A DNA stretch of 63,468 bases, the filler included, from Sphacelaria rigidula (Eukaryota): the NCBI GenBank assembly GCA_964200075.2. It is 11 parts of 11 records of this genome, joined end to end, with 100 filler letters (N's around TTAATTAATTAA, not from the genome) between each part and the next. Parts side by side here need not be neighbours in the genome. Positions count along the whole stretch, not along the records: positions 34,677 to 40,355 come from CAXNAA020025311.1; 10 more parts are not named here. The stretch is one strand, 5' to 3'. Within the stretch, counting starts at the first letter, position 1. Every line of letters begins with the position of its first letter. A program made the position numbers and the translations under genes. The notes under the pieces are model-generated. The model was not told the DNA's origin. It did not search any database and saw only the letters and a program-made list of their open reading frames with translations. Shown here piece after piece: positions 17,054-43,744 of the stretch.

Positions 17054-17399
17054 GTTCTTGTACAAACAATAGTCAGAAACAGTTCTCTAGGCTAGTTACG
17101 CACCGTAATCGGACGACGTCCTCTGGTAAGGTTGTACGTTTGAAACCATGTAGAGGCGGTTGAAGGGGGGGGGCGTACTCATTTGTTGCTTGCCTTAGTC
17201 ATTTGACCATTGACCACGCATCCCTTTCGAGACGGAGCANNNNNNNNNNNNNNNNNNNNNNNNNNNNNNNNNNNNNNNNNNNNTTAATTAATTAANNNNN
17301 NNNNNNNNNNNNNNNNNNNNNNNNNNNNNNNNNNNNNNNTAACGGCATTAATGATCATCTCCTCCGTGCACTTTTTTGGCCGGTTCGGGGGGGGGCTAT

Positions 17400-18570
17400 C
17401 TCGGCAGCAGTCTTCCACAGCATCGTCGCTGCGGTCGGCACATCTGGCGGGGTGCCGTAGGAATGGAAAGACGGCACCATCAAGTTACTACACAAGAAGG
17501 ATGGGATCGCGTGTGGTAACTACAGAGACATTTCACTCGTGGCACATGCTGCTGAAATTCTCCTCAGAATCGTAGCGAACAGGCTCGGTGATTTCCGTAA
17601 ATGGAACGGATACCTTCCCGGAAGAACAGTCAACTTCTAAGCGGCAACGATCGACTACGATGTTCGGATCACGCCGACTACCGGAATTGAGAGGAGCGAG
17701 AAATATATCACTAGACATGTGCTTTATCGATCTGCAGAAAGCCCAAGATTCTGTAGACCGCACGCTCTTGTGGGAAGTGCTTGCTCGGTTTGGAGTCCCG
17801 CAGCGAATGATCACGATCATCCGTCTGTCTCACACGGCATGCGAGCACGAGTAAAGCTAGATGGTGGAGAAATATCAGCGTGGTTCCACGTCTGCCAGGG
17901 ACTCAGACAAGTTCGCGTTTCTTCCCCGCTGTTGTTCAATACCTCCGGCGCAGCCTCGATCGACGTGGTCGTACAGCGGTTCGCAGTGAACCCAGTCATC
18001 GTCTCGGACTTAGTTTTCCCAGCTGATGTGCCAAAAGGTAACGGTGGTTAACTCATGAAAGAGACACGGTTGGAGAAGGTACGGCACGCAGTGTAGAAAA
18101 CGCTTCATGCAAACGACGCCGGCATCGCCTCGAGGATCCCCGAGGGCCTTGCACAAATGACAGCCGTAGTACGGTCTCGGAGAGCAACACAGAGTCCATG
18201 CGCCTGTGGTCGTGCTCAGTTCCACAGAGGCCATCCTGTACATCAAGGCGGCCGATCGACGGTGTGAACAGACGGTCAAGTCGTCTACCTTGGTGATGTT
18301 GTCAGTACGGATGTGAAAATGTCCATCGACGTCAACCACCGCACCGGCATCGCGTGGGCACGTCTCCGAATATATATTTCCTATCTCTGCGATCGACCCA
18401 ACGTCCAGCTATTTTCGAAAGTCCGGCTGCTTAGCGGAGGTGGTGGAAGCTAGCTCTGTTGTACGGATGAACCACATGGGCGTTACGATCTGAAGACTTC
18501 GACAGTCTGCGCATTGCTCATCATAAGCGTCTACTGCGGGTGGTTGGATTCCACAGGAAAGATCGAAATG
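17400..18570 (+). mobile_element. Degenerate RTE-like LINE reverse transcriptase remnant
   Basis: Pieces CGNYRDISLVAHAAEILLRIVANRL, CFIDLQKAQDSVDRTLLWEVLARFGVP and GMRARVKLDGGEISAWFHVCQGLRQ..SPLLFN, with many frameshifts and stops. Confidence 0.9.
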
Positions 18571-20199
18571 GCTGCAAGACTCTGTGTTCTTTCCTGCCGG
18601 TGTACTGGGACTGACGTACATCGTGTCAGCACGCGACCAGCGGATGTATTATATATCTACCAGTGTTGATGAAATTATCGATGTCTTATGTGCAAATAGT
18701 TCGCCTGGGGATGCAACCAGGCATCGTTGGTTTTGCAGTACAACGATCGGAGGAATATTTTGGACACAAAGTAAAGAGCCGATCGCGCCACCCTCAGCCG
18801 CAAGTCCGTCTCTTGTTTGTTCCCCTCTTCATATGTTACCCATCAACGGGCTGTCGAGATAAACGTTTCGGACACGGAGCCCCCCCATCCCCCTCCCGGA
18901 GGGCAACTTTCCGAAAATTGTCATGATTGGTGTGATTTTTTTGTGCATTTCGTTTTTAATGTTTTGGTGAAATTGTTGAAAGAAATTGATCAGCAAACAC
19001 TGACAAAAACCGAAAAGTCTGGCGGGCTTTGCGAGGTTCGTATACTTGGTTCTTCTCCTTGCCCGCCCTGTCCCGATGACCTCGGATGCCAGCAACGCTC
19101 ACACACATCTATGTACACTACAGGAGCGCACGGTAGCGACAGCCTGTAGCCCAAGGAGCAACATTATAACACCCCTCGCCAAGGTTGCCCGGACTACTAG
19201 TGGTAGGCAGTCGAGGCCCACGGCACGCAACATGATCCCATAAATGTAATCATGGTAGGTGATAAGCTTGGAGGAGCGGCGCGTCCGTCATCTCAGCGGT
19301 CTCCATGCCAAGGATCTCTGTACACACCAGCTGGCCGCACCCGCCAACGCCTCGGCAATAAACTAGTGGACAGCAGGCTGGGTGTCCCCCCCTCAAAACT
19401 CGAATTTTCGATCTTGGGGCCTACGTGTCCCGAAATATATTTTTGATATACCCTTGTACCCATGCAAAATATAATAATAGCTGTAGAGACATGCATGTAT
19501 GAGGCTACTCGAGGTCAAATATCGGATGTTTTCATCCGCATGTTCTCCTTCGCGAAACGAGCCGAAAGTGCGATAGTCCTTGTACTGCCCAGATCTGCTG
19601 CAGTATCTCGTCGAGTAGGATGGTGTTCGCTACGCATAGCGCAAGCGAAGCGCGTAACTTTACGCCGCTGCGATCGCAGGGTGCGGCTGGACTAGTTCAC
19701 GTATTATCGGTAGGTCCCGGACACTGAAGTTGATTCATCTACGTTTATCCTGGTCACACGCATAACCCCCCTGATATGATGCATCAGTAATAGACGCTAC
19801 CGAATCGTCGGGAGAAAAACTCGTCACTCCGAGCAAAAACCCTGCCCCCCAAACCAACGACACTTTGCAAACGACCTCTCGACAAAAACACCGCTTGTGC
19901 TCAAAGAACATAGTCGAGGATACCCCTCCAGTACCAGCGGATGCATGATCACACAAAGGACACATCTCGGAAATTTTCATTCATGTGATGTTACGGTAAA
20001 GCTGAGCCATTGCGTACGACGGCAAAGGCGAGACGCATGCCATGTCGGGGAATGCCCTACCGAGCATATATCCGGCCTCTAAATATCGTAGGTGGCTTAA
20101 ACCCGACAGACGAGTACTTCACTTAAACATGATCACAAACATCGAGTGCTGAAACAACACACAGACACACATACACCCAGACCCAAACAAAATGATGTT

Positions 20200-24041: not shown

Positions 24042-25227
24042 TTAATATGAGTAAAAAACGGGCTTACGGAGCCAAAGCCTACCTCTGATTGATTGTTGAG
24101 AGAACATGCGGCGTAATTTCGTTTCAGTCCAACGGCAGATGGGGTTGGATATTTGTTCTTTGTTTTTTCACCAAACCAACAGACACAAGTACATGTCATG
24201 GGAAGCCCTGACCACAGCTTTCGAGTACAGTAAGCATACATGCAGCTCCTGACGTGGATAGTTCGCAAGGAATGTCGGGGAAGGTGAAGGGTGCATACGT
24301 GTGCAGGGTGCTCGGGATCGTAGTAGACGTGCGGCGCAATTGACCTCGGGACCTACATTCGAAGTATGTTCTTGATGTTTGTTCACCACCCTATGTGCGA
24401 TGGACAGCCCGTCTTTCAAGCAATCCAGGCAGCCCCTACACGGATCTCGAGCAAATGGATGGTCCGACATATACGCGTAGGATACTGTTGTGACATGTTG
24501 AGAGGCGGGTTTGCCAGACTTCGTCCTCGTATTATCATGAGTGAAGCATTTTGAATTTAGTTCTGACACTGGTCCCAACGCAGGGCATACTGAGAACCCC
24601 ACAGAGGAAGAAATACACGCATACGGTGTCCTGTGTAAAAGTGTGCGATGCCAGAGCTCAAATCGGCGCCGATTTGAGCAAAAATGCGTGCTGCGCTCGA
24701 TGGGAACACTCGGGACTGTCGGTCCTTCTTGGGAGATCCGAATTTGATGGTCCTGGACGGAAATCAAATATGCTTCAACCATGGTGATTTGACGACGACG
24801 TCGCGTAAGCTCTCCGGACTGCATTTTAAGGTTTCGCAGCAACACTAATGTGCGACATAGAGTAAAACCAGCCAAACACTTACCGTTCGTGGAATATCCG
24901 GATATGAGAGACTTCCGGGCGTTCGCCGCCCGAGAGAAGCTAGGGCTCATTCCTTTCGAACGGTGAGAATCAGGGCTTTTGAGCTCACGTTTGTTTGCCT
25001 GTTCGTTGACCCGAATGGACTAAATTTCTGAGAGCTCTTGAGCACGTGCCAAGATCTGCTAGCTATCGAAGCACAGTACAGGCACGTAATCCGCCATGCT
25101 GTTTCTTGTATGATTTCAAACGGCAACTATCTGAAGAATCGTGTCATGTTTGTTTTCTTGAAAATGAGGTGGACTGCTATTTTGTCCGTCCTCTGCTGGC
25201 GACGAGGCCGGTGGGGATGGAGAAGAG

Positions 25228-25950
25228 GTGGAGGAGAAAGGAACGCCCGTTCCCGTAGACTTCAGGCCACCTGGGAGCGAGAACGACGTTTTGTGTGAGT
25301 GGAGGCTTGGGTACCTGCGGGACGAAAAGAACACCAGCATATTTGCGCAAGGAACGTTTGGAAAAGTACTGGGGGTGAAGACAGAAAGCGGGAGACAGGT
25401 GGCCGTCAAGATCATGGAGAAATCGAAGATCTCCCCTGAGGAGAATATTGCTAGAGAGCTCAAGCTTCTGCAGGAGTGCTCAGTGCATCCACACGTCGTG
25501 GACCTCCTTGGGTATGTCAACACTACTAAGAGTGTGTACATGCTGATGCCGCTGGCGGACTCCGACGTGGCCGCTATGATCAAGAGCTCGACACGACTAA
25601 ACGAGGAGAGGACGAGCTACATGACCGGCCAGGTGGTGTCCGCCGTGGAGTCTCTGCACGAGAGGAGCATTGTGCATAGGGACATGAGACCCTCTATCTT
25701 CTTGTACTCTCCAACAAGCTGATTCTGACCGACTTTGGTTTGGCCACAAAAGTGGAACGTGGACAGCAGATAATGACGGGCGCTTGTGGCCCAATGCCCT
25801 ACCTAGCCCCTGAGCTGGTCCGCGACCTTCACCACGACAAAACGGTGGATATGTGGGCGGTAGGGGTTGTAGCGTACGAGATTCTTCACGGGTATACACC
25901 ACTTCAGCCATTCATGCAACGAGCGCGATCGTGGGACGGTCTGATGCCGG
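25228..25950 (+). pseudogene. Intronless Ser/Thr protein kinase (CAMK/AGC-like) with a frameshift near 25710
   Basis: Frame 1 gives QGTFGKV, VAVKIM, RELKLL..HPHVVDL and IVHRDMRP, then a stop at 25720-25722. The shifted frame continues KLILTDFGLA, ACGPMPYLAPE and VDMWAVGVVAYEILHGYTP. Confidence 0.88.
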
Positions 25951-28900: not shown

Positions 28901-30461
28901 GGGGGGGGGGGGGGGGGGGGCGTTCGGGCTCGCCGCCGATGTGTTGCCGATTACCCGGGGAAACATCGATGTACTGGCCGCGCCAAAGGCCGCTTAAACT
29001 TTGCTGGCCGGAGCTACAAGATCACAGCACTACACACAATAGTGCACCGAGCGTACGGGCCGGGTCGGCAGTTCCCATCTGAAACGGTCTAGCACTAAGC
29101 CAGAAAACCCCTTTTTCCGACACCATGTTTCGACCTTGCGCAATACGCTAGATAGGGTTGGCTCATCATTTTCCGCAAAGCACAGCATTTTTGTCGACGG
29201 AAGGTTCTACGCCTCATACAGGTAGCTCCCGTGACTAATAATTCAACTCTAAGTATCCAGCACAGCACTGGTTCCAAGTGAATGATTTGAACGCGAAATG
29301 ACACGAATGTCTCTAATAGCCATTTACTTCAGTGGAACTCGATCGGTCCTTCCTTGCACCATGAAATTTATACTTCGAGCATATCAACGCGTAAGGCAGA
29401 TATCGTATTTCATTGCTGTCACATTTCCAACAGAAACTTACATATTCGTAGGTGTGATCGACGCCTCTACCATGGAGTTTTGTCCCGTTTGGGGGAAAGT
29501 GGATGAAACCCGCGTTGACCCGGAGAAAGGGCCTCATACATCGGTTGACGCTTTTCCCGCTCTCGAGTACGAAGAAATTGTTCAGAATATTCCAACGGAG
29601 GAGTAAACGATATCCAGGACAAATCTAGATGTTTGTCTCCTGCCACTACACCGGTAAGTTAGTGACACTTACTTTAGGATGTCGAGGTAGAGGCTGATCG
29701 CTCCCAAAATATACTCGTCGTATTGCTGGTGTTGTCAGCGGCGACACATGAAAATAGTGAGCATCAACACAGGCACCGACATAGGCACAAGCACAAGCAC
29801 AAGCACAAGCACAAGCACACCGAATATTCGAGGAGGCGGTGAGCTGCCTAGCGTTGAATTTGGTATAAAAGGAAAGGTCACTTCGGGTGCAGACGACCAG
29901 GGTGTTTTTCAAGAACATCGTCGATGCTTGCGAGAACGGTTTTCACATTCGGGAAGAGTAAATACTTAACCCACAGAGATGGTACGATTAGTATGGATGG
30001 GCGGCTGGCAACTCACGGAAAGCGGCGGACAACTTGACGCCGGTATCGTGCAGGATGTGGGAGGGAAAGGAGGTTGATGGTTGAACTAATCACCAAGTGT
30101 ACCTGCTGAACTTCGCGCCAACAATTCGACAAATCTCACCCTTGCGGAGCTCATTCTCCTCCCTTACTGTAGAAAAATAGACTGTTCACTTCGAACAGAA
30201 ATTCTCAGCGCTATCTATTTGTTTCGGATATTTATCGACATCTATAGCATAACTACCACCAGTACTCTCGGCCAGGTACACAAGGTTCACCATTCTTGTT
30301 CAGTTTAATATAAGTAAAACATATTTCTTTGTACTGCGGAAAAAAAAATCTTCAGCCTTTTCAAGGACAAGTAAGCATACCTTGAGGGAATCTACCATCC
30401 TTTACCGCGAGTTGAATAAATATATAATACAATATACTATATTTCGGTATTTGGCTCTTAC

Positions 30462-33400
30462 CAAGCGATGCATAATCTGACTCGTGTCGTACAAAATGTA
30501 GAGGGAGAAGATGATGGCGCCAGCCAGGGAGTACAAGTAACTTTGGCGGAAGCCAAATATCGCCATCACAAAGCCCCAAATCATGAGAATCCATAGCGAG
30601 GCAAATAACGCCCCCCCCTGAGGAGAATTCAAGGACGAGAGGGGAGGAGAGCAGGGAGCACGGACAAAGGGAGGGGACATGAGTGAACGCCAACAAAACC
30701 GAAGAGTGATGCTGCGATAGGGGATGGAGGGTCGTGGGTTGATTGATCGAGTTATGGCTTCATTGATTCTCTGATCGGCGATGATCCCAGTCGTGGTCGC
30801 CGGACAGACGAACCCGAGTTGGATACCCGAAAACATTGCACGGTCAAGACGAATCAGAATCCATACGAGTCGACTCCTCACGATGCGCAAGCAGTCATGC
30901 TGTATAAACCGTTGGTTCAGCCGTGGTCTCATGAGAAGTTCGTCAAAATGGAAACAGGTACACAAAGCGAAGCAAATAACAAGATATCGTAACGTCACAA
31001 GATTGAGATGTAAATGATAAATCGATGCCTTGGGTTCATCTTACATGGTCGAAGTACGACGAAACGAAACAAGCACAGTGTTTGCGACAGAATCATTCTT
31101 GCCGATCTTCAGCTACACGCATTTTGATCGCGGCGACCTCTTCGGTGGTTCTTTTGACACGCTGTGGATCTCAGTGGCCCAGCGGACAATGACATTCGTC
31201 TACCCGCACAGTGGCCCTGTAATCAACCCGAAACCAGAGTCAGGGCTACTCGGACATTGGACCTAGTAAAAAAAAAGTGCAGCAACTTCAGATGAAACGC
31301 GGCTGCTGCTCAAGCGCTTTGCATATGTCGTAGGGCCACCTGCCGAGTAATCGTTCTCAGCCACAACGTAGGTACGCGTGGGACCGCCTGATTTTAGTGT
31401 GTTCCGAGATGAGCCAGTGACGGACCGCCTTGACAGGAGCGCGACTACTACGATCAAAAAACTGTAGCGAAATTTTCTCATTCGCAAACACTTCCATTAG
31501 TACAAAAAAGTAGTTAATTTTGTGTGTACACTGTTGCAGCTGGCGCGGGGAGGCGGTTTCAGCTACTTGAAAGGGATGGACGTACGTAGCGTTTGCGATT
31601 TTGGTTCGGACAACAACGACAAAAATACGAGTACCCGCAAGTGTGCCCATGCTCGCGAGGGTCGAACCGCTCATCGGCAACCCTCGTGTGCCCACCTGTT
31701 AAATCGGAAACATCTTCCGTGAGATCACGATGAGGATTGAAATATTTTAGGGGCCAACCGTGGCGCTTGTGCAGCAACGACCAACTCGACTTTGGATATA
31801 CGTTACTTAGTGCGCTCCTCCGCAGCGCACTTTGTAGCCTATATTTTACGATCATTTGGACCAAGCGTGGACTGCAGCGGAACTGCAAACTCACCAGAAA
31901 TGAAAAGTCAATTTTGCTCTGGAACGTGAAGAGTGTCAAACCGAGGAAAACGGCCATTGTCAGCGCGACGGCCTGAATCACTACCGTCCCCTATTGAGGT
32001 TCGCGGGGAGAACAGACGAACATGGACGGGCACAAGACACACACGACAGAAGACACGAGCACAGGCAGGCGATACAAGATGACGCACGCGCGCGCACACA
32101 CACAGATATACCGATGAGGAAACTCAATTTCACACGTGAAAATACAAAGGTTTGTAATCGTGGATCATGGGACAAGCGAGGGTGAATAAACCTTATACCT
32201 TGGCACCATCGGGGGCAAATTCTACGCCACAACACAGTTGAGGGCGGACTTTGAATCGCGGCACAGTGGCGGATGGGTTCTGGACCATGACAAAGGTCGC
32301 AGGAGCACCAGCATTGTTAGTATATGAACAGTTCAATGTTGCAGTATGTCCGATTCACAGGGGTCGCACTTGATGTAACACCACATGAATCATCATCGTG
32401 TACAAATCGACCTTGATTCCATCCTTCACCGTCTCTTTTTGTGCCGTGCAGCCTAAAGGAAGAGCCCGCCAACACCAGCCGCTTGCGACAGACTTTTTGT
32501 CACACGACTTCGGTCATCAAGTAATCTGCACCCCAAACGAGTCATGGCTTCTTCTCACTCCAGCTACGTGATTTCACACTGGAATATCGTGAAGAAATCT
32601 GACCCGTGTCCTACCACGAAGCCAACACCGCCAACCAGTTCACGCTACTCCACGACATCCAAAGCGCAAACCTGACCCAACGAGCTGGTCAGATCGCAAC
32701 TCTTGGGCAAGAGGGGTACAGGATACCCTAGGCACACGCATGGGTTGGCAAAGCTCACACAGGCGCCAAGCGGTGCCGATTTCAGTAAAACGTGGTGCTG
32801 CGCACACTCGCAAGCGCTTGCCAATGGCAGCTTCCACAAGATCCGAATCTCATTATCCCCTCACGATTCGAATCTCAGTATCCCTTCACGACCCGAATCT
32901 CAGTATCCGTCCAAGATCCAACTCTCAGTATCCCTTCAAGATTCCAACATCAGTATTTCTTCAAGATCCAAATCTCAGTATCCTTCCAAGATTCCAACAT
33001 CAGTATTTTTTCAAGATCCGAATCTCAGTATCACGTCAACATCTGGGCCTTAGAACCACTTCAAGATCCGAACGTCGGTTTTCTCACTACCCCCTCAAGG
33101 CTCAAATATCAGAGTATGCACACCAAAATCTAAGCGACAACTGAGAAATTGTTGACGAACTCGCGCGAAATCACGGATGCGGTGTCACTTACCATGCCTT
33201 GGGTTGCGTACGCAGCGCAAACGACCCCGATCGTGTACGCCATCACGAACGTCCACATTCCCAGGAGGTACATGTTCAGGGGGTATTTATCGCGATAGCT
33301 GATGGCGCACACAAACACGAAGCACAGGCGAAAGCGTCTGGTTTTTAGAGGGTATTGAAAGAGACGGCGGCATAAGAAAGTACGGGTATGCACAAAACTA

Positions 33401-34221
33401 CATGTGGAAAACAATAAGTGTTTTGGCGGCGTGCCCCGGAAATAAAAGCAAAAAAAAAACATATCAATAGAGTACCCAGTTGTACAGTGTACGATCCATT
33501 AGCGCAAACACTTGAGACATGATATATTATTTTTGCTTGTACAGGACGAGCATGTTTCAACGTGTGTATCAGAGACGCGAGAGGGAGAATGAGCACAAGC
33601 AAAAACGCTCAATCAGTGACCTTTCCAACAGAGGTCTCAATCGGTTTCTGCCTTTGGAGGTCGCAGAATTGGAAAAAATGAAAATAAATAAGCTAATCCA
33701 CAAGGGACAACGGCGACAAGACAACGAACAATCGTGTCTACTTGACCCTTGGACCGCGACGGTTGTCCATCAGACCATGCATACCGTTTTCCCGTGAACT
33801 TGATTCTGATTCGGCATATGACCTACTCTCGCCGTCAAAGGGTTGGTAAACTACCACGTCTCTTCGGACGAACAGAACAGCGATCCAAAAAATCAACAGT
33901 CTTACATGATGCTACAAAATCGAACGATGCATGACAAACCTCAAAATTCATCTGTGTACTTTTTTCGAGGTGAAAAAATTACCCTGGCTTTTCTAGCAAA
34001 TAAGCACATGGTTTTTTACTCAAACCATATATTCCTCCTCAACACGGCTCACCACAGAAGGCCGCACAATAGACCGAATGATAACAAAAATCCCACCCAT
34101 GTGGTCCACAGGTTATTGAGAATGCCCTCCCGCACTGTGTCGTTCAGGACACACACGGCAGCTACGGCGGCCGTGAAAAGCAGCTGAATCGTGAGGATGC
34201 CGTACACCTTGCGGATGAACC
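30462..34221 (-). CDS. Bax inhibitor-1/TMBIM family protein (lifeguard/GAAP-like), partial, 4 exons
   Basis: Exons 34053-34221, 33193-33298, 31895-31990 and 30462-30617 are all AG/GT and phase-compatible. Product: GFIRKVYGILTIQLLFT...CYRDKYPLNMYLL...VIQAVALTMAVFLGLTLFTFQSKIDFSFLGGALF...AIIFSLYILYDTSQIMHRL. Confidence 0.95.
32838..33130 (+). repeat. 25-bp minisatellite in a BI-1 intron
   Basis: About 8 clear copies of AAGATCCGAATCTCAGTATCCCTTC plus degenerate trailing units. Confidence 0.92.
33746..33842. mobile_element. Second, degenerate copy of the piggyBac-type MITE
   Basis: CCCTTGGACCGCGA ... TCTCGCCGTCAAAGGG, 97 bp, with an interior colinear with 23944-24041. Confidence 0.75.
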
Positions 34222-34676: not shown

Positions 34677-34845
34677 CAGTCTCTTCCCCTCCTCGACCGT
34701 TGAGTCGAATTTTGTGTAACCACGACATAGTCGCTCTCCACTGTTGGGCATGGTGTGAGAAAAATCCCAGATCGCTCCGAGATTTGAAGCCACGACCCAA
34801 GCGTCAGAAGGTTTCGAGGTCATCAACTGGGCCACCGGGGCGACC
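34677..34845 (-). mobile_element. tRNA-derived SINE copy, truncated by the contig edge
   Basis: The reverse complement aligns with about 49680-49850 over the tRNA head and core. Confidence 0.88.
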
Positions 34846-35238
34846 GGCGTATACATTTCCAGAAATTGGTGTCGAAACAGCAATTTTGAACGCTTGAAAT
34901 CGAATGTTATCTAGGTAAACGTCCATTTCGATCAATACCACGTTCCATGAGTGACTCGTCCTCAAGAGCTGGAGGTGCAACCCAGCAAACCAAACGTACT
35001 TTGGTACTTTACTGACTGAACGCAAGAGGTACATAATCATCACGTGGTACCTACGCGGCAGAATTCCATACGACTGGGAAACCTACAACAGACGATGTTT
35101 GTTTTCATCGTACCAGAGTCAGAAGATGTGACAGCATGTTCGAGGTCCCCGCCCCCAAACACGTCCACTCCACATCTCCTGCCAAGAAGGCGCCTACATC
35201 ACTGTCATGCTTCTGAGCTCTCATGATAATGCTCGTAC

Positions 35239-38200
35239 CTCGTCGATCATGATGAGCCCGACGGAAGACACGAGAGCACCGTCGCCGCCCTTTCGAGTCA
35301 CAACATCCCATTTTTCAGGCGTTGTGACGATCACCTGTGTAAGGAAGAGGTGCGGTGGTGATAGAAATCAGCGACTCACGACAAGACGCCGCCGAGGTAA
35401 GCGGCACAGCTGAACATGGGCACATGTTAAGGGAGCACACCCGGACAAATCGGGGGACAGATGAAAAGGCCGGCGATACTACATGCATTTGACTCTGCTG
35501 AACGGTGCGATGTGATGTATCAATGAGTTAATGCAATACACCATCGGCCCCAGCAAGCAACGGAGGTGGGCGCGGACTCAAAATATTGGGGAACCGCGCA
35601 GAGCTAAAAAACAAAAAAACAGGTCGGGAGCATAGGTGCCAGGGACGAAATCAACGAATTAACAAGAAGCCTAACGCAGCAGCTCGAACAAAAGCGATAC
35701 TTTTTCCCCATTGTCTTTTTTTGGGTATTACTTTCGACCTCATGCCCCTTCCACGGGATACGACCCGCGTCTGAACACAGTGTGGAGGTTACGGATCACA
35801 AGATGAGCGTGCCGGTCAGCCCGCAGCATACCGCGTCCACGCTTCCACTCGATGTGATACCGAGACAAAAGTAGCAACCACGACGAAACGCGAAGAGATG
35901 TATGGCAGAACCTTGCCTGCGAGCCTTCGACCTCTTGCTTGCTGAGCTGCATATCTCCAGTGTACTCTCGAACCACCTGAACAAACGTGCAGAACGGAAT
36001 AAGTCCCTCCAAACCCCTTCAATAGCAACATGCGACTCAAGGCCAGTACAGTATCGGTGTCTTGGCAACCTCTCAGGAAAGAGGTCCCATACCTTCAAAC
36101 GGCCAAAACATAGCAGGTCAACCAGAAAGACAAATACCGGAAAAACTAATCGATTATCCACATTTTAATTCTACGAACGGCGGGTTGAATGCAACACTCT
36201 GAAAAACGAGAATACCCTCACCATATATCCAAGATGAACTACATGCCGGCCGCAGTATTCCGTTCACTACCCACCTTCCGACGCTTACAGATTCCGGAAG
36301 GATCACAGTTGCAAATTCGGGTATCGACAACCGATGTGGCGGCAACAAAAAACCGTCGATGAAGCAAGAGAGTAGCTTAAGCGCACCCAGGACTGTCATT
36401 TCTTCATCTCCTGTGTGTCCGGGTTAAGTAGCGGGAGCTGGACGCATCCGATTGCGCCATTGTGAGGAGATAATCTTATGTGGCTGTGTAGAAAGAGGAC
36501 AGGCTGAATCTTATTTTGTTTCAGGCTAAATACAGAAGCCAGCCCGCACTCTCTGTGGAATTCAAAAATAGATACGCTATGGCGCAGAGGGAGGATTGAT
36601 TTTTCCAGGATGGACATGCAGGGCGCTGCACAGCATGGCAGAATGCCTCCCGCGAATCGAACACCGTGCCCTCCCATGAATGTAACCATCCCTACAAAGT
36701 GAGGTCAGCCATGCGTTACGATATTGCATAGTAATATGCTGTAGTACCATCCTGAAGTTCAACTGTTGGACTGAAGCTCTAAAGGTTTGCGCCGTCAAAT
36801 CTTCCTGTTTCAGGCCACATGACATGACACTGTACTCCCGAGTGCTAACTACTCGAGAGCCGATGGTCTTTCTAGCAAAGTTCTGAAGAGACGAGAACAT
36901 TATCCACAAGCAAGCATCAAAGCCGCGCTGTCAGAGTACAATAACCCGGTTACCACGACAGCTCAGATACGCGGCCTACGCCAAAAGGTCATCGGCCGTC
37001 GCGTCCTGGTGATGTTCTGGCCGCACCCTGCCGTGTGCTCTCGATTGACCCTCTCGGCAACTGAACTCCATTAGACAGCTTTCACGGAGCACAAATGCAA
37101 AGATGGACTATGATGAGCGCATGACAGTAGTATCTGATTTCATAGGGATACATCCAGGAGCTTCTTGCGACTACCCTCGAAATCTCGTCTGCTCACCAGT
37201 CCTAGGGGCTTGAGTCTCTGCGAAAACTTGGCCACAACTTCTTGGGCCAAGGCCTTCATGGGAGCAACGTAGATGGCCTTGATACCGGTCCGGTCCAGAG
37301 CTCCGCCGATGATGTGCTGCCGAACCAACTGCATGTACATTCCGACCCAAGAACGACATGCACACGATTTGTATTCGCAAGACTTCCGACTGTGTACGGT
37401 TACAAACCGTGCAACAGTCATGCACGAACCATGCCCATGGAGCACAGTCAGCATCGGCGCTGTTGCGCTGTATCCCACGATTCCGAATTATTATCATGTT
37501 TCCCCCCATTACATAGCGTCAATGGTCAAATGACTAAGGCAAGCAAAAAATGAGTACGCCCCCCCCCCCCCATTACATAGCGCGTTTTCCCCCAAAACAA
37601 AGCGACGTCACCGGCGTCAGTCTGTCCAGTGATGCCCTGTGAACTTGCCTGCAGGAGAGCAAGCATGGCCACGTTGGTTTTACCGGCACCCGTCGGGGCA
37701 CACACCAACAGATTCTCGGACGTCTTGAATGCCGCTTGGTACACCTACCGAAGAAGAGATGAGAGAAACATACGCAGTCGGTCGATACAAAATCCGACAG
37801 AATTCCTGCGTGACATCTCGAGGGTGATGATACCCACGCACCACAACACAGAATCACACAGCAACAAGGATAGCAAGAATCGACTAGAACGGTCGCCCAC
37901 ACGTCCCGGCACACCGGCACAGCTCGAAACTTTCGTTTGCAAACCCCCGAACGATGCGGGATGATGACAACTATGAATTGAGTGCTCATGCCTTCACAAT
38001 TGGCATACCGATAACATGCAAAAATTTGGGCCCCGTGGATGGACACGAACGCCTCTGTCATGACCCCGACCTACAACCACCATCCATCACACTAACGCAA
38101 AGTACCGTACAAGCACTGATTATCCTGTAGCGATGCGCAAACACCAAAGCGCCCCGGAATCCCGACTGTTGGTATCCGTATCAACGTTTTCCACCGTTGT

Positions 38201-38541
38201 ACCGAACACGAGCACCCGGAGATCTTCGGCTTGCCTTGCTCTGCATGGGGTTGAGTCGCTTGGTACCCTTGAACGCCAGCTGCGCCCAGGCATCTAGATC
38301 GGTTATTGGCACAAGGTCGCCTTGATCCTTGATCTCAGGCTTCTTAGGCGCAGGAATATGAACCTGTAAAAAAGGGCATCCGTGAATACGAGAAGCCGTC
38401 GTGATAGTGTAGGATCGGCTCGGCCAGCGATCACGTTATGCCTTAGATCAGTACGTGAGAGAGCCGGTCAAGGCTCATGGTGAGAAAGATAAATGCGTGG
38501 GAGGGCCGGTTGGTGTGTATGGCGCGAAATACGTCAGCGGC

Positions 38542-38575
<34 letters not shown>

Positions 38576-39698
38576 GCAACAGCAACACCATGACCTACTA
38601 GCCCACCTGCTCATATTGCCCAGCCACGATAGTCTTGGTGGCCCCGAAAGGCAAGCCAGATCTCCGATCATGCCACTCGCGGGTACCCTCCGGAGCCAGG
38701 CCGGCGAGCATCATTTTTTCCTCGTCCCACTCCCCCGCCGCGCCGCCTGCGCCTGCCATGGCTCCACCCGCTTGAAGACCGAGCAGTCGTTCCTGCGCGA
38801 GATGGTTTCGTAGTTTCATGAGAAGGGCAAATATCGACGGAGGCGAAGCTATGATTGATCACGAGCGGGGTTCGTATGATGTGCACCTGATCTTTTTTCC
38901 ATGTGCAATAGATGATTATGGCAGCGAAGTGATCTGTGCGGGGGGCCAACGCTCAACACACCGCGCCCCTGACTCCAGGCGTGTCTTTTAGCAACAAAAG
39001 CTGTCTGGCTAACAGCTGCTGCCGCCTCAATCAGCTGCTTGGCTACATACCAACCAGGGGTTTACATACGATACATGCTTAGATATTTTGCCTAAAACTG
39101 GGGATACCCTTGTACTCACATAGCATCGTGACAATATTCTGGCCCTAGCAGCGTTGATTTCGTCTCCGGCGATGGTTAAAGCGCTGTGTTCGTTTTGCGA
39201 ACTGACGTTAAATGCAAAACGCACTACTTGAAGACTGAACCACGCTATTCACAAATGGAAAGAAGAGGACCGTTGAAAGCTTCTCCAAAGGTCGCCGGAA
39301 TTCCACCGTTTGCGGGTGGAACAGCTTATTCACGGCACACCAGCTGACTGTTACCCCTCCCACAAGCAAGAAACTTCAGCAATCGCCGAGCAACACTGAG
39401 CTTCAACAACTCGATTGAAGGCATTGCCACTCTTTACGATACGGCGAGTTTCCTGTTACGTTACGAGACCGCACACACCTGTTTGAGATATTCATCTTCG
39501 AACCCCACCGACTGCAGCCAGTCCAAACCGCCGCCCGCACCTGCCCCGCCGGTGCCTCGAGCCCCAACCCCACCTCCTTGCTGCTGCTGATTGCCTCCGC
39601 GTTTGTGGGCTTTTCGTTGGTCTTTTTTGCGTTGTTTCTCCGCCTCTTTTTCCGAAGTTGACCATATCTTGACCTGCTGTGATATGCTGGGACCAGCT
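35239..39698 (-). CDS. ASCC3: Activating signal cointegrator 1 complex subunit 3 (Slh1/Ski2-like DExH helicase), partial, 7 exons
   Basis: Exons 39479-39698, 38607-38792, 38235-38363, 37649-37744, 37197-37328, 35917-35976 and 35239-35334 join in frame. Product: ...[42 protein letters not shown]...[13 protein letters not shown]...[58 protein letters not shown] and TGDMQLSK favour ASCC3 over Brr2. Confidence 0.93.
38541..38588 (+). repeat. (CAA/CAG)n microsatellite in an ASCC3 intron
   Basis: Directly visible. Confidence 0.95.
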
Positions 39699-40500
39699 CT
39701 GTACACGGGACGGTGTCGACATAGACCAAAGACGGATATTTTCGGGAATATCAGCGCGATGGAAGGAATGCGGGGGGGGAGGGACATACTGTGTGTACTG
39801 TGTGCTGTAGGGGTGGAGCGGAACAATACCGACAGTTTAGTGGGCACTTTGACATTGTCTTGAATGATTTCAACAAAGTGTCCCCCAACTCCTTGCCGAA
39901 ACTCCACGTTTGGACCGTAGTTAGCTTGAGTATACCACGAATATTCGGATACTTCTGGAGCTGACAGTTTCGAGTGCTCGCCAGCTCAAACTTTGCCGAC
40001 GGCACCTTCTGATCCCCCCTTGCCCGAGGGCTCTCCATCTTCGATGGGTTGGGGCTCGACAGAACCAACTTTTGTTCAACCATGAACTGTTGGGGGCGAG
40101 ATAGGAAAACGTGCCCCCATGATCTTGCATGGTCTGTTCTCGTGAAGTTATTCGGAATTCAGGGATACATCCGACATTCAAAGCCCCCCCCCCCCGCTCC
40201 GCCCCGGCTTTGTAGGGATGCGAGGTCAATGATCTCATGACTATGGCATGCATGATCACGAACACATGAGTACCCCCCCCCCCCCCCCGGGCGGGGCTCC
40301 CCAAACCGGTACAGCACATACAGCAACCGCCGACACGCCAGAACACCGGCGGGCGNNNNNNNNNNNNNNNNNNNNNNNNNNNNNNNNNNNNNNNNNNNNT
40401 TAATTAATTAANNNNNNNNNNNNNNNNNNNNNNNNNNNNNNNNNNNNNNNNNNNNTCTATTGTGTAGTATCAGATTTATACTTTCCCCAAGTAAAAATAA

Positions 40501-42305: not shown

Positions 42306-43332
42306 CTTAAGGTTGATCTGGGCCAGTAGGTGTACCCGAATGAGCTGCCAAGACAATCCGAGAATGCTGGCTGGTCTACCGTCGATGATATCTTGAGCTC
42401 CGATGTTCACCACCTGGAGTCCTGCTGCCTCCGCCGCGGTGAGCGCGGCGTTGAGGTTTTCCGTCGCTTTGTACAGTCCCACCGGCTCGGACCCCGACGG
42501 AACATTTATCCTAGAATCGGCTGTGCCATGAGGTAGGCATGAAAATCACACACAAAAAAGGCAAGGTAACATACGGAAAATAAAAAGGACAAGAATATAT
42601 GAGCGTGTGAGTACAGAAGTTATGTACCCCAAAAAGTTGGGGAAAAAGGCGGGAAAGTATATGTATATATATATATTGCCGTATTTATGCAGAGTGATTT
42701 ATTTATTCATGTATATGGGTATATATATACTTTTCTGCACATGATGTTTGCATTTATTACCTTGAAAAACGAAAAAAAAATCCAGCGCTGAGAAATATAA
42801 TCAGTTTACTCGTCGGAAAATACGAATGACCATCTAGACGGCGAACGTACTTGCAACCTTTTCAGACTTCCTTCACGGTCCAACTTTGGCCAGTGAGCTC
42901 ATCGCAATTTCGAGGGCATAGCGGCGACAAAATGTTCGTCGAACGAGACAGCGACGAGGGGGGTGGGGTGTGCTCATGACCTTGCATGCCGTACTCATAT
43001 GACCGTTGACCTATAGAGGCCCACGAGAGATAAAGGTATTATTTCAGAAATCCAGAGCCATGAGAAGGCTGATGCAAGGAAATGGAGGAAAGAGATACAC
43101 AAAATAAAGACGAAGAGAGAGAGAAGACAACGAGATGACACCGACAGCGGCACAGTGAGCAGATGTATCATTCACCTATAGAGCCGGGGATCGCCAGGCA
43201 CACGAGTCGACACATGAGCACGCCGTCACTGAACTTGTCGAAAAAGTCCGCTCCCTTGGGATCCAGTGGCAGCAGATGCTGCAGGAACTTATCCCCCTCC
43301 AGATGGGCGTTGAGATGAGACGCAAACGCCTC
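42306..43332 (-). CDS. Fimbrin/plastin actin-bundling protein, first calponin-homology domain, partial, 2 exons
   Basis: Exons 43176-43332 and 42306-42520 join at phase 1. Product: EAFASHLNAHLEGDKFLQHLLPLDP..FFDKFSDGVLMCRLV..AIPGSIADSRIN...ATENLNAAL..A.AAGLQVVNIGAQDIIDGRPASILGLSWQLIRVHLLAQINLK. Confidence 0.93.
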
Positions 43333-43744
43333 CTGCATGGTATAGAACACCGAACGCCGCAGGAGAAAGGGGAAGGTAGAACGTGGGGAGGAGGGGACCG
43401 GAGGGGGAGGTGTGATTCGAACCCTGCTTCATTCAACTACTCTCGTACCTATTCCTTCTTCTGTAGAGTCTCTTGTAGAGAGGAGGGGGGAGCGAATGAG
43501 AGCTGCCACTTTGGAGTTCATAGACTGCAAAAGAGTAGAATAAGATAAAACAATGAGGTTCTTATCGCGATGGTTGGCGATGGTTGGTTCCTGGGTTTGG
43601 CTTCATTCCTGTGTGGCTTCGCGTGCCGAGTGGAAACGTTGAGCTCTGCCTCCAGCAGTATGAACGATCGCCTGCGGCACCGGAAATCGTGAGGTCAGCA
43701 GTATACATATAACAACGTTTTCGGGAGATAGAGAGTAGAGCGCT

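Follow-up and report, generated by a model that had tools for sequence, protein, structure and literature searches.

GC-AG introns make up 0.37-0.87% of introns in animals and plants, as counted in five model species (PMC1557818). The mismatch that a GC donor makes with U1 at position +2 is compensated there by better matches at other donor positions (PMC1557818), and an orthologous donor may be GC in one species but GT in another, switching between the two states being common (PMC1557818, PMC2490688). In the brown alga Ectocarpus the genome annotation is reported to assign 95.3% of introns genome-wide to GT-AG and the remainder (4.7%) to GC-AG (PMC3787667), roughly fivefold what animals and plants show (PMC3787667, PMC1557818). 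A survey of 60 new brown-algal genomes describes an overwhelming share of splice sites as GT-AG, and reports that the minor spliceosome has been lost in this lineage (10.1101/2024.02.19.579948). Brown algae appear to carry an elevated GC-donor background. Here we describe one stretch of a brown-algal ASCC3 helicase gene, from Sphacelaria rigidula, in which three of seven donors are GC, as against less than one intron in a hundred in animals and plants.

The ASCC3 contig and its surroundings

The window, by which we mean the whole stretch of DNA that was analysed (63,468 nt, ~49% G+C), contains the ASCC3 gene part on one contig (34677-40355, minus strand). Logan contigs of four of the eleven sequencing runs listed were compared with this contig: X1 and X4, which are DNA, and X6 and X7, two samples of one study and two of the four RNA-like runs. 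The records of X6 and X7 bear no RNA label; both were taken as RNA because they contain exon joints that are absent from the DNA runs. In each of them a single contig spans all seven exons with normal joints (15 of the 88 joints were listed). The resulting map is given below, with a slash at the exon-intron boundary. Exon 1 is supported by a transcript-contig piece at 39478-39700, and its acceptor is presumably the AG at 39700-39699.

39479..39698, minus strand: exon 1 on the contig (internal in the gene), donor CAG/GT, phase 0; open frame
38793..39478, minus strand: intron 1, GT-AG, 686 bases; X6 and X7 both have the joint, and its cut is resolved
38607..38792, minus strand: exon 2, donor CAG/GT, phase 0; transcript contigs and homologs
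38364..38606, minus strand: intron 2, GT-AG, 243 bases; exon pieces adjacent in the record positions of X6 and X7, cut resolved
38235..38363, minus strand: exon 3, last codon a conserved Lys (AAG); transcript contigs and homologs
37745..38234, minus strand: intron 3, GC-AG, 490 bases, donor AAG/GCAAGC; joint in X6 and X7
37649..37744, minus strand: exon 4 (96 nt), Walker A of the N-terminal helicase cassette, last codon Gln (CAG); Pfam DEAD, E = 2e-6
37329..37648, minus strand: intron 4, GC-AG, 320 bases, donor CAG/GCAAGT; joint in X6 and X7, ends CT..GC on the plus strand
37197..37328, minus strand: exon 5, last codon Leu (CTG), GT donor; match to the human ASCC3 structure
35977..37196, minus strand: intron 5, GT-AG, 1220 bases; X6 and X7 both have the joint, and its cut is resolved
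35917..35976, minus strand: exon 6, 60 bases, last codon Gln (CAG); 95% identity to P0009 over 20 aa
35335..35916, minus strand: intron 6, GC-AG, 582 bases, donor CAG/GCAAGG; joint in X6 and X7
35239..35334, minus strand: exon 7, up to the DE of Walker B, donor GAG/GT; the gene runs on beyond the contig

Along the gene the donors run GT, GT, GC, GC, GT, GC, GT, all seven in phase 0, and at five of the seven the exon ends in (A/C)AG, which here encodes Lys (AAG) or Gln (CAG). The seven exons together give an open frame of 306 aa. The contig's share is ~920 nt of a 6-8 kb transcript. It occupies record positions 1313-2235 in transcript contigs whose lengths, 6137 and 8090 nt, are compatible with a long gene of which the remainder lies off the contig. 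With phase 0 at every donor (35239-39698, minus strand), any internal exon could be skipped without a frameshift. A high-copy short dispersed repeat lies at ~37518-37567 within intron 4 and occurs also at 17165-17214 and 10529-10567.

When exon 5 was compared with solved structures, human ASCC3 was the top match (41.4 bits, E = 5.9e-10), ahead of the best BRR2 (35.7 bits) and human BRR2 (27.6 bits), and the ortholog from Discosporangium mesarthrocarpum (P0009) scored 1298 bits against ASCC3 and 1185 bits against BRR2; ASCC3/Slh1 is the closest solved structure for both. The 306-aa translation agrees with P0009 in 207 of 267 aligned columns, and with a Hapterophycus fragment (P0031) in 81 of 98, as expected of a brown alga or a very close relative. 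Judged by the structure matches, the gene is the Ski2-like helicase ASCC3/Slh1, as the initial annotation had it, and not its paralog BRR2. Compared with full ASCC3/Slh1, which has two helicase cassettes with Sec63 domains, this contig encodes only ~306 aa, from the N-terminal part of the protein, and no odd protein features were seen in that part.

The window as a whole is a series of size-sorted, unrelated contigs of ~5.68 kb, so that adjoining genes are not genomic neighbours. Between the contigs stand linkers, ten in number and all alike, each a 12-base spacer with 44 N on either side, at intervals of 5,778-5,780 bases:

5681, 11461, 17240, 23019, 28798, 34577, 40356, 46135, 51913, 57691: linkers

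Two further genes have homology-supported exons. A Bax inhibitor-1 family gene (29673-34221, minus strand) has five exons in one open frame, with all donors GT and none after (A/C)AG, and a gene with a calponin-homology (CH) domain (42306-43395, minus strand), which we take to be fimbrin-like, has two exons, both with GT donors. An ab initio exon scan with Pfam on the other contigs matched 0 of 13 candidate pieces. Candidate GC-donor-like sites were seen at 6809 (plus strand, CAG/GCAAGG) and 54665 (plus strand, AAG/GCAAGA), each ending a short open frame behind an AG. An intronless protein-kinase-like sequence at ~25200-25950 (plus strand), with a single frameshift just past the HRD motif, is possibly a processed pseudogene or an assembly error. 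Frameshifted reverse-transcriptase-like fragments at 10500-11460 and 17360-18600 (both plus strand) presumably resemble non-LTR retroelements.

Splicing at the GC donors

Every in-frame, stop-free pairing of a GT or GC donor with an AG acceptor near each of the six introns was scored against three homologs, and the proposed junction scored highest at all six. For introns 3, 4 and 6 it reached 750, 884 and 649, respectively, vs 693, 818 and 592 for the best GT alternative. The three junctions concerned (38235/37744, 37649/37328 and 35917/35334) are all found as joints in the transcript-like contigs of X6 and X7, where they skip 490, 320 and 582 bases, and all three are absent from the DNA runs X1 and X4. 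Among the equivalent cuts that each joint allows, GC..AG is the sole standard pair (GT-AG or GC-AG) in 3/3 cases. The cuts fall exactly at the donors that the initial annotation had proposed, AAG/GCAAGC (38234), CAG/GCAAGT (37648) and CAG/GCAAGG (35916). Phase 0 and the AAG or CAG exon ends at these donors, which it had also described, are upheld by the open 306-aa frame, and the first two donors do flank the Walker A exon (37744-37649) consecutively. Its count of three in six complete introns is correct as such; the seventh donor (35238) is GT, and the proportion of donors is hence 3/7.

We observed 0 differences between X1 contigs and the window over 34812-37546 and 37559-38529, intervals that cover the three donors. 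X4 derives from a diverged individual sequenced in another study and carries 55 substitutions; none of the 40 places listed among these 55 is at +2 of a GC donor (38233, 37647, 35915). Neither a T at +2 in these DNA contigs nor the use of a nearby GT donor, both of which had been entertained as grounds for rejecting the GC donors, was found, the X6 and X7 joints falling on the GC sites and the homologs favouring the GC junctions. It is therefore highly improbable that GC was called through errors of assembly or that neighbouring GT donors are the true ones: the assembly is fragmented, an in-frame GT lies 15-42 bases from each GC donor and the Laminaria digitata gene model cuts 30 nt downstream in intron 3, but the joints in two runs, the matching DNA contigs from two runs and the homolog alignments contradict such a reading. 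Taken together, these results confirm that the three GC-AG introns are real and correctly spliced out.

Of the eight U1-type consensus positions outside +2, the donors of introns 3, 4 and 6 agree at 6, 8 and 7, respectively, vs 6, 5, 5 and 5 for the four GT donors of ASCC3, and all three GC donors continue with AAG at +3 to +5. These features, with the minor spliceosome reportedly lost in brown algae, point to U2-type GC-AG introns that would be excised by U1 and U2. Many GC-AG introns of Aureococcus and Micromonas are copies of mobile introners. The introns here are unlike introners and this origin was rejected: they are unrelated in sequence, with no blastn similarity among the six, and introns 3-5 lie at positions common to relatives among other algae. 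A U12-type GC-AG class was likewise rejected, as the donors GCAAGC, GCAAGT and GCAAGG do not show its motif GCATCC (PMC1557818).

GC and GT at the same introns in relatives

In an unspliced ORF, a GT donor in phase 0 shows up as Val after the exon and a GC donor as Ala, and the state of each relative was read out in this way. For intron 3, 34 proteins were obtained when the exon alone was used as query, and the seven closest of them (72-81% identity) were scored together with the L. digitata model. Ala was found in 3/7 and Val in 4/7 of the closest proteins; with L. digitata, which has Ala, the count becomes 4/8 GC and 4/8 GT. Two more distant proteins from the same search read Val. The best five of 49 matches at intron 4 comprised four with Ala and one that was spliced, and P0003, from another search, read Val, so that GC was scored in 4/5; the query contained the window's own read-through, which may bias this count toward Ala. 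Intron 5, where the exon ends in CTG, was used as a control and gave Val, hence GT, in 5/5 close unspliced ORFs among 29 matches. The residue following Ala was Ser or Arg in 8/8, as from GCA-AG, and we therefore read these rows as genuine GC donors; after Val, Trp or Leu also occur.

Pooling introns 3 and 4 gives GC in 8/13, vs 0/5 at intron 5 (p = 0.036), among rows that are not independent: P0199, an unspliced ORF, is like the L. digitata model (P0034), to which its intron start is very similar, P0203 is like P0204, and P0202 and P0033 sit on equally long contigs. On a tree of exon 3 the two states require four changes (3-5 in the bootstrap; 0% of 200 trees with a single change), the tree being built from 43 columns with one well-supported branch, which leaves a single origin formally open. 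For intron 6, the 120 matches listed of 237 were all full-length across the region, with no unspliced brown-algal ORF among them, and a pattern scan of metagenomes gave 18 loci, among which no brown-algal counterpart of the gene could be recognised. The corresponding scans at introns 3 and 4 yielded 0 loci in metagenomes, 0 in viral contigs and one in a bacterial genome. As read from these ORFs, this species is not alone in having GC at introns 3 and 4, and the state is not fixed among its relatives. The comparison with orthologs proposed in the initial annotation thus gave a divided answer, relatives having either GC or GT at these two introns.

The L. digitata model (CAN0236181.1) carries on for 10 residues within intron 3 and terminates after four residues of intron 4, which is the read-through expected from missed GC donors. 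The prediction that these donors would break standard gene finding is therefore upheld in a public model. A search for GT donors only disrupts ASCC3 midway through the ATPase core, and brown-algal annotation should accordingly admit GC donors.

Origin of the GC cluster

At the Ectocarpus rate of 4.7%, the probability of at least three GC donors in six is 0.0019, and at 1% it is 2e-5. The former corresponds to ~35 non-overlapping or up to ~200 sliding runs per genome of 111,742 introns, the Ectocarpus total obtained by summing the intron classes in the supplement of PMC11347168, a table without a GC-AG count. Restricted to donors that follow (A/C)AG, 3/5 has a probability of 0.009-0.027 at a conditional rate of 10-15%, which is assumed and not measured. 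The initial annotation had stated that other genes in the window use GT. This stands for the homology-supported donors, which are GT in 7/7 (five in the Bax inhibitor-1 family gene and two in the CH-domain gene), but as a control it is weak, because the contigs are unrelated and only 1/7 of these donors follows (A/C)AG vs 5/7 in ASCC3; the difference from 3/7 GC donors in ASCC3 gives a Fisher p of 0.19.

The observed junctions, their sequence context and the occurrence of both +2 states in relatives are best fitted by a reading that the initial annotation missed, namely that these are probably ordinary, constitutively spliced U2-type GC-AG introns at "permissive" donors. Conserved Lys (AAG) and Gln (CAG) codons would supply the exonic half of the pairing with U1 snRNA, and an intron start of G-Y-A-A-G would make this pairing strong enough for C at +2, so that T and C could interchange there at little cost and nearly neutrally. 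Once C is present at +2, selection would hold AAG at +3 to +5, the site would stay permissive, and GC would persist or recur. Permissive sites clustered in the highly conserved, intron-dense helicase core, together with a raised background, could then produce a local cluster of GC donors. A fully permissive site at ~50% G+C would be expected to be GC in about half of species, as intron 3 is. What we infer here is the compensation by U1 pairing, the near-neutrality of +2 and the species' own background rate. Of the alternatives offered in the initial annotation, lineage-wide tolerance of GC donors is partially supported, by the 4.7% GC-AG reported for Ectocarpus (PMC3787667). Against permissive sites it counts that 3/6 is still locally rare at 4.7%, and GC in 8/13 at introns 3 and 4 far exceeds that rate; selection for the GC state could be a cause. 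The sites offer a small natural test of whether exon ends fixed as (A/C)AG by the protein make +2 nearly neutral.

It is unlikely that 3/6 is a plain sample from a species or order in which GC donors are far more frequent across the whole genome (15-25% or more). At 20% the probability of at least 3/6 would be 0.10, and the ochrophyte Aureococcus reaches 39.6% (PMC3033335); the two candidate GC-donor-like sites stand at plausible exon ends (+6809 and +54665), and the donors available for comparison are few and mostly lack (A/C)AG. However, 0/7 of the homology-supported donors of other genes are GC, the brown-algal survey finds sites overwhelmingly GT-AG (10.1101/2024.02.19.579948), and ~49% G+C is unlike the GC-rich genomes in which very high rates occur. 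In addition, the same introns are GC in L. digitata and other relatives, which argues for a property of the site and not of the species.

The finding would be weightier only if the GC state were selected or regulated. Selection of the GC donors as a gene-specific control of ASCC3, acting from weak donors on either side of the Walker A exon through retention with decay or through skipping of that exon and aimed at its ribosome quality-control or alkylation-repair role, is in our judgement quite unlikely. Several lineages again have GC at introns 3 and 4, L. digitata at both of them, and in other eukaryotes alternatively spliced genes are enriched for GC donors (PMC2490688). Introns 3, 4 and 6, if retained, would run into a stop after 17, 40 and 58 codons, and skipping of exon 4 would leave the frame open. 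These last two properties are not special, because early stops are common to the GT introns and skipping is in frame for all five internal exons. GT is present in half of the close relatives at intron 3 and in one relative at intron 4, the GC donors are near-consensus otherwise and not weak overall, and Ectocarpus is reported to make little use of alternative splicing (PMC3787667). One contig per RNA-like run crosses all seven exons with normal joints, and no coverage was found in the bins within GC introns 3 and 6; assembled contigs drop rare forms, so that this is uninformative on retention, and minor isoforms and the levels of retention and skipping are beyond their reach. The sole listed intronic piece within the six introns falls in GT intron 1. 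Gene-specific splicing control, the other explanation in the initial annotation, is thus not borne out, GC being unfixed in relatives and the normal form being the only one among the 15 of 88 joints listed. In its boldest version, in which the two donors flanking the Walker A exon date far back in brown algae and are kept by selection as a splicing rheostat for ASCC3, we give it little credence; if true, stress would lead to retention or to removal of the ATP-binding exon without a frameshift, within a lineage otherwise regarded as poor in alternative splicing.

We prefer permissive donor sites, and the described systems bear the following relation to this locus. Like their U2-type counterparts in animals and plants, the introns here run GC..AG with a stronger consensus elsewhere offsetting +2 (PMC1557818). 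Ectocarpus belongs to the same algal class, and there GC-AG is the sole non-GT type and introns are of similar size, with a mean length of 776 bp vs 243-1220 bp here (PMC3787667); the splice-site passages of that account give a genome-wide rate without per-gene clustering or comparison across species. In Aureococcus and Micromonas GC donors are frequent too, with 22-40% GC-AG in genomes of 66-70% G+C as opposed to ~49% in the window (PMC3033335). Literature searches, in which subscription papers were poorly covered, found no report of GT/GC switching in brown algae or of GC donors in brown-algal ASCC3, and PMC10639083 contains no brown-algal passage. The same pattern of GT/GC switching is described for mammals and nematodes, with neutral fixation in a strong context deemed the more plausible route (PMC2490688), whereas the organisms here are brown algae and the gene is ASCC3. 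GC-AG introns and GT/GC switching are a known phenomenon, of which the ASCC3 gene of brown algae is a new instance.
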